Shown one piece after another: positions 1 through 5,235 of a stretch of DNA of 5,364 nt. Numbering within the stretch: position 1 is the first letter of the stretch; the number at the start of each line of letters is the position of its first letter. Made by a program: the position numbers and the translations under genes. Below the pieces are notes generated by a model. The model was not told where the DNA came from. It ran no database searches and was given only the letters and a program-made list of their open reading frames with translations. This DNA comes from a virus (lineage: Duplodnaviria > Heunggongvirae > Uroviricota > Caudoviricetes): IMG/VR virus record IMGVR_UViG_2875713109_000006; one strand, written 5' to 3'.

Positions 1-276
1 AAGATACCTAGCATAAAGAATGATTGATTTTTGAATGATCTATTTTATGATTTATTGCAATAAAATCCAAGCCATCTATATGGTAAATTGCCATAAAATC
101 AATCAGTTCAATAAATCAGGCTGAAACACGACTTCGATATAACATCAAAGAAAATAAAAATAATATATATAAATCATAAAGATAGAATACTCACAACAAC
201 CTTATCCCCACGAAAAACTGATAAACACTGAAATTCTTTTCAATCTTTTCAGTTTGGGTTTTCCGCAAAGCCACCA
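1..276. other. AT-rich non-coding tract with short repeated motifs (AAATCA, ATGAT) and one near-DnaA-box TTATCCCCA at 202..210
   Basis: All six frames are dense in stop codons. The only ATG-initiated ORF (35..124, 29 aa) has no Shine-Dalgarno and low-complexity composition. Base composition is visibly more AT-rich than the adjacent coding DNA. TTATCCCCA matches the DnaA box consensus TTATNCACA at 8 of 9 positions. Confidence 0.5.
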
Positions 277-342
277 GTGCTGGCGCGAGATGACAGTCTG
301 GTTTGTAGAAAAATAAAACTGAAAAAATTTATCGATCCAGAA

Positions 343-360
343 ACCGCAGGCGGGTGCGGT
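343..360 (-). terminator. Candidate stem-loop (ACCGCA / 6-nt loop / TGCGGT), possible weak terminator for the leftward early operon
   Basis: Perfect 6-bp inverted repeat 343..348 / 355..360. On the - strand the stem is followed by UUUCUGG and, a few nt later, by U-rich runs; the U-tract is not contiguous with the stem, so a classical intrinsic terminator is doubtful. Confidence 0.25.
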
Positions 361-370
361 GTAGTGCCGT

Positions 371-400
371 TTTTGTCTGCGAAAGATTTATTTTGTCTGC
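371..400. repeat. Exact 10-bp tandem direct repeat TTTTGTCTGC (371..380 and 391..400), 20-bp periodicity
   Basis: Read directly from the sequence: ttttgtctgc-gaaagattta-ttttgtctgc. It lies in the non-coding stretch downstream of the exonuclease gene. Confidence 0.6.
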
Positions 401-554
401 ATGTGGCTACCTCAGAGCGTCGCTGTGAATTTGATCTTATTGCGGTGTCGCAGTGGTTACCCGCGATCGTTTTTTCGCAGTTCGGCCTTTTTCTGGCCAG
501 CCACTACTGCATCAAGGTATTTCGGCGCAATCTTTATCGTGTGGATTTTGATTG

Positions 555-1259
555 TCATTTTGCACCGCCTTCTGCAATAGCAAGGATCACACCAAGCGTC
601 AGATTGCAGTCATACAACGCTCTATGTGGTGCACCTTCTCCGGCATCAACCTTAAGCGCCGCCGCTGCATCCACAAGTCGTTTCCAGCGGGTTTTACGGC
701 GTACAACATCCCATTCACCGTTATAATCTGCGTACAGCTGCATTACGCACTCAGGGGTGCATATATCCTCATGCTGTTCATAATCCCCACCAGACTGGCG
801 CAACATACGCGCATCAAATTTTGCGTTATATGCGACCCAGCCTTTACTTGTTAACTCCAATACTTTCGGCAGAATTTCCAACCATGATGGTGCATTAGCA
901 ACCATTTCATCCGTAATACCGTGAATTGCAGTTGCCGCTTCTGGAATAGATTTCGATGGCTTGACCAGCGTATTAAGCAAAACGTAACCAGCACAGTCGA
1001 TGATCGAAATTTCTACAATTTCATCATCAAATCCTAGTCCTGTGGTTTCTGTATCAAGAATGACAAAGCCCTTATCAATCCAGCGCTTTGCTATCTGTTG
1101 TTCGGTTTCCAGACGGTCGGAAAAATACAGAGACTGATCGGTGATCCTCCAACACTGGCGAATCACATCGCGCAACGAAGCCCCTTCTTTAGCTCTGGCA
1201 CCAGAAACCACCCCACCCAAAATGGCCGAAAAAAGTTGATTGCGAGTGCTCAATTCCAT
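555..1259 (-). CDS. DnaQ-like (DEDDh) 3'-5' exonuclease with an N-terminal extension of roughly 60 aa
   Basis: The translation contains the three exonuclease motifs in the right order: [10 protein letters not shown] (Exo I), [10 protein letters not shown] (Exo II), HRALYDCNL (Exo III-epsilon, H-x-A-x-x-D). ATG at 1259..1257 is preceded by AAAGGCGG. The ORF track starts at an in-frame TTG at 1280, which would add 7 aa. The gene overlaps the stop of the upstream 77-aa ORF by 10 nt. Confidence 0.8.
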
Positions 1260-4027: not shown

Positions 4028-5068
4028 ATGAGTGTTCGTAAACTTCCGACAGGCGAATGGATCGCCGACTTCTACACCGTCAACCGTAGTAATGGTAAGA
4101 ACGGGAAGCGCATACGTAAAAAATTTGCCACGAAGGGGGAAGCCCTGGCATTTGAGAACCATACGCTTCAGAAAGTAGACAGTGCGCCCTGGCTGGGTGA
4201 AGGGAAGGACAAACGAACTTTAATAGACCTGATCACAATGTGGTATGAACGCCACGGAGTAGCTTTGCGCAATGGTCAAAAGCGCAAAGACGCTATGACC
4301 TGGGCGGCAGAGTGCATGGGATTCCCGCTAGCTACAGAGTTTAATGCCCAGCTGTTCACGGCCTACCGCGCAAAAAGGCTTGATGGGCATTATGCCCGCA
4401 CTAGCAGAGTATCCAAGGTTTCCCCGAAAACAATGAACCTTGAACATGCTTACTTCCTGGCTATGTTCAACGAGCTGAAACGAATCGGGGAATGGTCAGC
4501 CCCCAACCCACTGGAAAACGTCAGACAGTATCGTACTGATGAAACCGAAATGGCTTTCCTCACTGCTGAAGAAATTGAGCTGCTTTTGCTGGAATGCAAA
4601 CGAAGCAAAGTAAAATACTTGGAGCTAGTCGTAAAAATCTGTCTTGCGACCGGCGCAAGATGGAATGAAGCGGCAACGCTGAAAAGCTCTCAGATCGCAG
4701 GCGATAAAGTTACGTTCGTCAAAACCAAAGGGAAGCGCAACAGAACAATCCCCCTTGATGATGAACTTCTATCCGAATTGCCTGAAACGAAAGGCGCTCT
4801 GTTCCCCAAACCCTGCTATAACGCGTTCCGCTCTGCTTTGGAACGCGCAGGCATTGAACTCCCCTCCGGCCAGCTTACCCATGTACTGCGCCATACATTT
4901 GCCAGCCACTTTATGATGAACGGCGGGAACATTCTGGTTCTGCAAAAAATTCTCGGCCACGCTGACATCACTATGACAATGCGTTATGCCCATTTCGCCC
5001 CAAGCCACCTTGAAGATGCCGTGCGACTTAACCCCTTAAAATGTCGCAAAAATGTCGCGACAGCTTAG
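4028..5068 (+). CDS. int: Tyrosine recombinase / phage integrase, P2/186 Int family (346 aa)
   Basis: Catalytic signature present: LATGARWNEA (box I Arg), HVLRHTFASHF (His-x-x-Arg) and TMRYAHF (Tyr nucleophile). N-terminus resembles P2 Int. ATG at 4028 lies 1 nt after the cI stop TGA (4024..4026). The ORF track begins at an in-frame TTG at 4019, which would overlap cI by 8 nt. Confidence 0.9.
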   Translation: MSVRKLPTGEWIADFYTVNRSNGKNGKRIRKKFATKGEALAFENHTLQKVDSAPWLGEGKDKRTLIDLITMWYERHGVALRNGQKRKDAMTWAAECMGFPLATEFNAQLFTAYRAKRLDGHYARTSRVSKVSPKTMNLEHAYFLAMFNELKRIGEWSAPNPLENVRQYRTDETEMAFLTAEEIELLLLECKRSKVKYLELVVKICLATGARWNEAATLKSSQIAGDKVTFVKTKGKRNRTIPLDDELLSELPETKGALFPKPCYNAFRSALERAGIELPSGQLTHVLRHTFASHFMMNGGNILVLQKILGHADITMTMRYAHFAPSHLEDAVRLNPLKCRKNVATA

Positions 5069-5235
5069 AAATACTGCCGAATACTCACAGATATTAACTA
5101 ACGTAACTTATTGATAACACTGTAAGTTATTGTTTTTCGTAGATAGTTGATGCTTTATAATATAGCCTGTGCTATATCTGTATGTAATGCAATCATCCCT
5201 CAAGGATCGACGGGATTAGCAAGTCAGGAGGTCTT
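5069..5235. other. AT-rich spacer downstream of int; candidate att / prophage-end region
   Basis: In P2-like phages the attachment site lies just beyond the 3' end of int. The region holds direct repeats TAACTTATTG (5103..5112) and TAAGTTATTG (5123..5132) and AATACT (5070..5075, 5080..5085), plus a TATAAT hexamer at 5156..5161. No tRNA-like structure was seen and the core cannot be identified from the sequence alone. Confidence 0.3.

Follow-up and report, generated by a model that had tools for sequence, protein, structure and literature searches.

The question raised by this locus is what fills positions 277-554 of a 5,364-nt piece of viral DNA (the window, i.e. the whole stretch of DNA that was analysed), directly downstream of an exonuclease gene. 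The original prediction described these positions as an unusually long non-coding gap in a compact phage operon, noted that they contain an exact 10-nt word in two copies and a small hairpin, and suggested a protein-binding array, a small RNA or a degraded gene. We conclude, with a probability of about 85%, that the stretch is a fusion of two segments with 24 kb between them in the intact phage, namely the stump of a DUF3850 gene and an intact cos site.

The window was found to match the genome of Escherichia coli PSS-07 (NZ_AP027673) at 100% identity and it is an 8.6-kb remnant of an ESSI-2-type prophage of the P2 family (Peduoviridae), located at the mntR/mntS site of that strain. The order of genes at this site in PSS-07 is DUF6680, a hypothetical gene, a dprA-like gene, the stretch studied here, a DUF3850 pseudogene, a gene for a 3'-5' exonuclease, DUF2732, two hypothetical genes, fil, cII, an apl/cox-like gene, cI and int. 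Strain EC101 carries an intact prophage at the identical mntR/mntS site, with the same proteins and otherwise identical to the remnant; among the relatives of this P2-family (Peduoviridae) prophage are the ESSI2_ev phages and Cronobacter phage ESSI-2. In the window, the exonuclease gene (RNase_T family; 555-1259, minus strand) is intact and is the last complete gene of the early operon. At the other side, positions 1-213 form the AT-rich upstream region (about 25% GC) of the dprA-like cargo gene, which is on the minus strand and starts directly left of the window; this region is part of the variable cargo module and is not conserved in other phages, and homology to other phages and satellites starts at about 214. 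The GC content is about 0.25 left of position ~200 and 0.44-0.52 over 251-550, in agreement with the near-coding GC content that had been reported for the region.

The cargo adjoining the site comprises three genes on the minus strand (dprA-like, a gene for a 437-aa hypothetical protein and DUF6680; positions 2956-6000 of PSS-07 locus L001). DprA-containing modules of P2/P4 hotspots are demonstrated anti-phage systems (PMC9122126), which makes the dprA-like module of PSS-07 a candidate defence system. We also observed an exact 11-nt repeat, TATAATATAGC, at both ends of the element (5156-5166 in the window and 2706-2716 in PSS-07 locus L001), which is likely the att core. In the intergenic region between mntR and mntS, the copy on the mntR side forms part of a perfect palindrome, AGCTATATAATATAGCT, and integration may therefore disturb the regulation of mntS.

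The comparison with EC101 revealed how the two segments came together. The EC101 prophage matches positions 1-462 of the window at 100% identity with its cargo-proximal end and positions 458-1300, again at 100% identity, with the DUF3850/exonuclease region at its other end. The junction is a 5-bp microhomology, TACCC (458-462), and this pentamer is present at both breakpoints in EC101. By the record coordinates, the remnant is 23,943 bp shorter than the intact prophage of EC101, and the sizes balance, as the 8.6-kb remnant and 23.9 kb add up to the 32.6 kb found between mntR and mntS in EC101. The alignment of the two prophages shows the remnant to be the product of an internal deletion between two TACCC pentamers, and what had looked like a gap in a compact operon is on this comparison a deletion product and not a native intergenic region. 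The junction is rare: it was found in only one of 5426 complete E. coli genomes. Lost with the deleted piece were the rest of the DUF3850 gene, a methylase gene, replication gene A, ogr and the portal, terminase, head, lysis and tail genes, as well as the late-operon terminator AACCCGCATTGTGCGGGTTTTTTT (minus strand), which in the intact phage is located 51-72 nt past the breakpoint. In EC101 and in AHB29, the last gene of the late operon encodes a 110-aa protein with a signal-peptide-like N-terminus, MKNFIILAVGAAVSFNVFAAE (positions 4754-5086 of EC101 locus L006; deleted from the window). This protein is absent from ESSI-2 and may be a secreted or periplasmic moron.

Right of the junction, the stretch consists of the DUF3850/ASCH stump (457-558, minus strand), i.e. 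the first 33 of 109 codons followed by a new stop. The open reading frame runs from 558 to 460 with its stop codon at 459-457, and its ATG overlaps the stop codon of the exonuclease gene (ATGA). Its 33-aa product matches positions 1-29 of the Pfam family DUF3850 (PF12961; E=7e-9) and the stump is 100% identical to the 5' end of the EC101 gene, which encodes a 109-aa DUF3850/ASCH protein; in RefSeq it is annotated as a DUF3850 pseudogene 'missing C-terminus'. The claim that the region contains no minus-strand ORF with a plausible start was thus mistaken. The idea of a degraded gene holds for 458-558, the 5' stump, and fails for the remainder, which we assign to the cos site. Comparison with related prophages, which had been proposed as a check, indeed shows the DUF3850 gene to be intact in sibling prophages, but the loss in PSS-07 occurred by deletion and not by frameshift. 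A plus-strand ORF of 149 aa (277-726) crosses the junction and runs antisense into the exonuclease gene; since its frame spans the junction (in the intact phage this frame meets a TAG stop right past the breakpoint), we consider it a chimeric artefact of the deletion.

To the left of the junction the DNA is non-coding in the intact phage too, with the late-operon terminator on one side of it and the variable cargo genes on the other. Comparison with related loci shows the non-coding DNA at about 214-400 to be, by all appearances, the cos site of the phage. In a profile of 202 distinct homologs the conserved block was found to extend from 214 to 397, with background levels of conservation beyond. 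Its left part (214-345, plus strand), which is conserved both across 10 aligned loci of phages and satellites and in the anchored 202-homolog profile, contains CTGAAA-type motifs (216-226, 228-234 and 319-325), direct repeats of TCTTTTCA (235-242 and 244-251), the sequence GGCGCG (281-286) and the sequence TTTGTAGAAAAATAAAAC (302-319). It is followed by an invariant core, GCAGGCGGGTGCGGTGTAGTGCCGTTTT (346-373, plus strand), within which the ends of the virion DNA of relatives map, at 349-367. Positions 401-457 form a spacer that is weakly conserved, and in phages only, and that leads to the late-operon terminator in the intact phage.

The conservation of the core is wide. The 19-mer GCAGGCGGGTGCGGTGTAG was found without any mismatch in at least 120 species-representative genomes of Enterobacterales and in at least 120 IMG/VR contigs (both among the matches listed), and the genera concerned include Xenorhabdus, Photorhabdus, Yersinia, Serratia, Proteus, Morganella, Providencia, Pectobacterium, Hafnia, Salmonella, Enterobacter, Kosakonia and others; the few matches in unrelated taxa are about what is expected by chance for the 596 Gb that was searched. 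The block at about 214-380 also matches phages of Cronobacter, Yersinia and Salmonella. The core occurs once in the intact EC101 prophage, and in that same prophage we found nothing within 4 mismatches of the P2 cohesive end, i.e. no cos site of the P2 type. The genes beside the site vary by locus (e.g. dprA/hypothetical/DUF6680, an AAA ATPase with an acetyltransferase, Abi, or sce7725/7726). The site therefore looks as a cos site would be expected to look: it is single-copy, non-coding, conserved far above its surroundings and adjoined by a hotspot for cargo and defence genes. The terminase of the intact phage (homologues of gpP and gpM) would bind this site and make staggered nicks inside 349-367, giving cohesive ends.

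The location of the ends follows from five virion-derived records of related phages, in all of which the DNA ends map in the cos core. The record of ESSI-2 has a terminal redundancy of 15 nt that corresponds to 350-364 in the window: it starts with GCGGGTGCGGTGTAG|TGCCG... and ends with ...CAG|GCGGGTGCGGTGTAG, these 15 nt being given at both ends of the record, as are the 19 nt of the cohesive end in the record of P2. The ESSI2_ev genomes are those of phages isolated from viromes (PMC6969025), and in four of these assemblies (ev129, ev015, ev040 and ev239) the sequence stops at 352/357, picks up again at 359/361 and is abutted there by Nextera adapter. Both ev129 and ev015 start with the adapter and then GTAGCGCC; ev129 ends with ...GCAGGCG and then the adapter, ev015 ends with ...GCAGGCGGGTGC, in ev040 the adapter separates ...GGCGGGTGC from GTGTAGCGCC, and ev239 ends with ...GCAGGCGGGGGC followed by adapter read-through. 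An assembler meets adapter sequence only where genomic continuation is lacking, and the breaks therefore point, as indirect evidence, to physical ends inside 349-367, with the record ends scattering from 352 to 364. In the relatives, then, the ends of the virion DNA as read from these records lie in 349-367, overlapping the hairpin.

As a side observation, Illumina Nextera adapter sequence (AGATGTGTATAAGAGACAG / CTGTCTCTTATACACATCT) was left at the cos ends in four RefSeq phage records, at positions 1-43 and 30879-30927 of NC_049394, 1-48 of NC_049395, about 29625-29666 of NC_049393 and 29127-29203 of NC_049392. The ev239 record carries the full index/P7 read-through, and in ev129 an annotated CDS (gp42, 30741-30926) overlaps both the adapter and the cos block.

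The cos sites of P2, 186 and P4 have 19-nt 5' cohesive ends (Ziermann & Calendar 1990, as cited in PMC9122126), and the site described here resembles them in several respects. Both are found in Peduoviridae, are single-copy and non-coding and are common to helper phages and to satellites that lack a terminase. The layout is alike, with cargo, cos, terminator and a minus-strand late operon in that order (old, cos, tQ and Q in P2), and, as in P2 versus P4, the hotspot for cargo is found directly left of cos in phages and directly right of it in satellites. Both cut regions begin with GGCG and have an inverted repeat across their left edge, and a motif pair of GCTGGCGCG and AT(T)AAAAC is found at similar spacing on the left side (GCTGGCGCG-N25-ATAAAAC here versus GCTGGCGCG-N24-ATTAAAAC in phage 186). 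The sites differ in the sequence of the core (GGCGGGTGCGGTGTAG... here versus GGCGAGGCGGGGAAAGCAC) and, compared to P2, in their position, the site being located here beside the distal end of the tail operon and the cargo slot at the int/attP side and not between gene A and the portal gene. No pair of words phased at 20 nt was seen by eye in the right flanks of cos in P2, 186 and P4. When 349-367 was aligned to the P2 overhang, 10 of the 19 bases matched in the best register, and blastn of the block against the cos junctions of P2, 186 and P4 gave nothing significant (best E ~0.6). The tie to the classical cos sites therefore rests on the layout, on the termini of the records and on the sharing with satellites. 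Because the direct similarity is weak we treat the site as a distinct type within the P2 family, a modest proposal of a second cos type in these phages, which is annotated in none of the records that we inspected. We found no mention of the cos core sequence or of phage vB_YenM_324 in the literature searched.

The site is also shared with satellites. It was reported that the cos packaging signal is all that P2 and its satellite P4 have in common and that a defence hotspot adjoins cos in both (PMC9122126, PMC8628076). Of 5426 complete E. coli genomes, 501 carry the block at about 214-380; of these, 466 fall in the identity band of the satellite of the ST131 strain EC958 (two loci of this band were inspected and both were satellites) and 35 have at least 80% identity (of three loci inspected here besides that of the window, two were phage-type and one was a deletion remnant). 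Prophages of the ESSI-2 type are scarce in E. coli (Mathieu et al., PMC6969025). An identical core was found in an element of about 10.5 kb in EC958 (NZ_HG941718, 2657037-2667410, at a tRNA-Arg gene), and a similar element is present in LI60C3. The EC958 element carries int, sce7725/7726, cos, an ogr/Delta-like gene, a DUF927 primase gene, an Icd-like gene and genes for a P2-family major capsid protein and an HTH regulator, and both elements are without terminase, portal and tail genes; on this predicted gene content the element of EC958 and LI60C3 is a satellite. Among 240 loci that were classed, 155 were phage-type, with the last late gene on the minus strand at a median distance of 217 nt right of the core, and 37 were satellite-type, with ogr/Delta and primase genes on the left and the integrase gene on the right. 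The cargo is found left of the core in the phages and right of it in the satellites.

The hairpin of the original prediction is present. It consists of arms at 343-348 and 355-360 (ACCGCA-GGCGGG-TGCGGT, 343-360), i.e. a 6-bp stem with a 6-nt loop and a DNA ΔG of -5.9 kcal/mol, and it overlaps the left edge of the cos cut region. A perfect 6-bp hairpin also occurs in about 30% of shuffles of the region. All six pairs can be formed in only 80 of the 202 homologs: the left arm is variable (ACCGCA, CGTGCA, TGTGCA and others), the right arm, which is part of the core, is invariant, and no compensatory changes were found in the right arm among the 202 homologs. A left arm that varies without compensation indicates selection on the sequence, as a nuclease recognition site, and not on the fold. 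The hairpin did mark an important site, the cos core with the virion DNA ends, but the stem as a structure is not conserved.

The repeated word was likewise found as described. TTTTGTCTGC occurs without mismatch at 371-380 and at 391-400 (plus strand), 20 nt from start to start with a 10-nt spacer, and copy 1 is located 7 nt right of the terminal redundancy of ESSI-2. Among 1000 dinucleotide shuffles each, 102 of the whole window and 8 of 277-554 contained an exact 10-mer repeat at a spacing of 10-30 nt, and the window holds one other such repeat and no more (AAAATGTCGC at 5038 and 5049, spanning 5038-5059 at 11-nt spacing, in the last codons of the integrase gene). Repeat and hairpin are not compelling by sequence statistics alone, and the weight therefore rests on conservation. 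Exact TTTTGTCTGC is found as copy 1 in 46 of the 202 homologs, as copy 2 in three and as both in three, and TTTYGTC is found from position 371 in 89 and from position 391 in 53 of the homologs, with no other start position in four or more. The sequence of copy 2 is specific for the lineage and co-varies with that of copy 1: other lineages repeat a word of their own at both positions (CGTGGGGAT/CGTGGGGAT, CGTCATAAG/CGTCATAAG or CGTCAC/CGTCAC), and at least four different types of word are each doubled in this way. A scan of offsets from 10 to 32 with the variable word of 9 nt gave a single peak at 20 (4.2-4.5 matches out of 9 versus a background of 2.0-3.2). In 117 non-redundant sequences the similarity between the two copies within a sequence was 4.22, versus 3.37±0.11 when copy 2 was dealt among the sequences, and the observed value was reached in 0 of 2000 permutations, a shuffle that ignores relatedness. 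If both sites drifted independently, the similarity within and between sequences would be equal on average; that within sequences was higher.

Two sites that are two helical turns apart and change together point to a single sequence-specific reader, which suggests that one protein reads both words, and their start at 7 nt from the terminal redundancy makes the terminase the candidate. In phage lambda, cosN is conserved and shared across phages that differ in specificity and the R sites of cosB are bound by TerS and determine specificity (PMC4669245). By analogy we infer that the phased words are docking sites for the small subunit of the terminase: docking at both words, on one face of the DNA, would position the nuclease and set the specificity of packaging. 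The arrangement is like cosQ-cosN-cosB of lambda in that a conserved nicking site is flanked by lineage-specific repeated words at fixed spacing (PMC4669245), and, as in cosB, the words are repeated at a fixed distance from the nick site and vary between putative specificity groups. It is unlike cosB in that lambda has three R sites (R3, R2 and R1) and an IHF site and the site described here has two direct repeats 20 nt apart. The lambda terminase and the sequences are unrelated, and the likeness is thus one of mechanism and not of membership, with binding in the present case being putative. The gpM gene is located at about 14.7 kb from cos.

Several other explanations of these features have to be weighed. 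The chance that the whole stretch consists of the decayed remains of one or more genes is practically negligible: 458-558 truly is a gene stump and the block is covered by annotated small hypothetical ORFs in some phage records, but these ORFs disagree in strand and position, none of the reading frames over the block is open in more than 81 of the 202 homologs, the variability of the block shows no 3-nt codon periodicity in these homologs, and the block is non-coding in intact, inducible phages. For the same reasons of frame and periodicity a small conserved ORF over the block was rejected. We consider it very unlikely that the hairpin and a T-run form an intrinsic terminator on the plus strand, or part of an sRNA, and that this explains the conservation. 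There are terminator-like sites at 353-370 and 356-370, followed by TTTTTGTCT, and in some relatives cargo genes are transcribed toward the hairpin and T-run; however, the stems of these sites are weak (5-6 pairs including G-T), the full stem of the hairpin can form in only 40% of the homologs and lacks compensatory changes, and a run of 19-28 nt that is invariant base by base fits recognition by a protein and not a stem. The two weak terminator-like sites in the cos core were judged to be incidental. An Rfam scan of window positions 1-700 (E<=10) gave matches at chance level only (best E=1.3) and a promoter scan found none inside 214-554 and one weak promoter-like site far to the left, also judged to be incidental; these outcomes speak against the small RNA that had been suggested.

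For the phased words themselves the original prediction had offered iterons of a replication origin or operators of a phage regulator. Two exact 10-mers on one face of the helix, with an AT-rich tract near, are in line with this reading, but there are two copies only, iteron origins usually having at least three beside or inside the initiator gene, and in the record of phage 186 the origin lies inside gene A, a gene that is deleted here and that the intact phage has at a distance of about 20 kb. In addition, the mapped DNA ends are 7 nt from the start of the words and the same architecture is found in satellites with different replication and regulatory genes, and we regard an origin or operator function as most unlikely. 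What stood of the proposed protein-binding array is a conserved, co-varying pair of sites at 20 nt, the reader of which is likely the terminase and not an initiator or regulator. Arm-type sites of the integrase were considered and rejected too, as up to about 3.5 kb of cargo lies between the block and att and satellites with unrelated integrases share the repeat architecture. A possibility to be taken seriously, even if we think it rather unlikely, is that the cos assignment is right and that the words bind a host DNA-bending protein or another phage protein, or are functionless products of slippage or conversion, with the terminase reading 214-345. This left block is longer and more uniformly conserved and has repeated CTGAAA/TTTTCA motifs of its own, the flank shared by P2, 186 and P4 is also on the left, copy 2 is degenerate (weak or absent) in many satellites, and phages and satellites that reside in the same genome are inconsistent, sharing their words in some of the 11 genomes concerned and not in others. 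On the other hand, the similarity peaks at exactly 20 nt only and several unrelated types of word are doubled, gene conversion between words of 7-10 nt across 10 unrelated bases seems unlikely, and a host factor would leave the lineage differences of the words unexplained. The left block could be an alternative or an additional recognition region for the terminase.

The reading of the stretch as a deletion fusion with a preserved cos site also connects it to a wider pattern of decay. About 20 independent remnants of the same phage type that keep cos, with cargo, and the int/immunity end were found in IMG/VR and GTDB (e.g. loci L147, L177, L142, L238 and L160); in these, a full or truncated last late gene is fused to early or int-proximal DNA, and the breakpoints differ. 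The element in E. coli Combat13F7 (locus L010, 2501-5188) appears to be another such remnant. That many independent remnants spare both ends indicates that internal deletion is a recurrent route of decay of ESSI-2-type prophages. The PSS-07 remnant fits the pattern of cryptic prophages, in which both ends (int and immunity at one side, cargo at the other) are kept and the lytic genes are lost by microhomology-mediated deletion, and we found no respect in which it differs from that pattern. It keeps cos, the integrase, an excisionase (Apl/Cox-like), the CI immunity and the cargo module adjacent to cos. One may speculate that the remnant is a satellite-like defence shuttle made in one step, which would be excised and packaged by an ESSI-2-type superinfector, the approximately 20 remnants then reflecting selection, or that the phased words constitute a packaging-specificity code for the pairing of helpers and satellites; we consider this improbable. 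As no terminase gene is left in PSS-07, the cos site, although intact, is an idle relic there as long as the cell is not infected by a related helper phage.

Cos sites and deletion remnants as such are well known; what we would modestly put forward as new are the type of cos site, its wide exact conservation, its sharing with satellites and the candidate specificity element. For annotation, the finding replaces an unexplained gap by a gene stump and a cos site and marks the prophage as one that is incapable of making particles. The co-varying words provide a testable candidate for the terminase recognition element of the ESSI-2-type group, and the cos core provides a handy marker for the defence hotspot adjacent to cos, predicting the helper on which a satellite depends.
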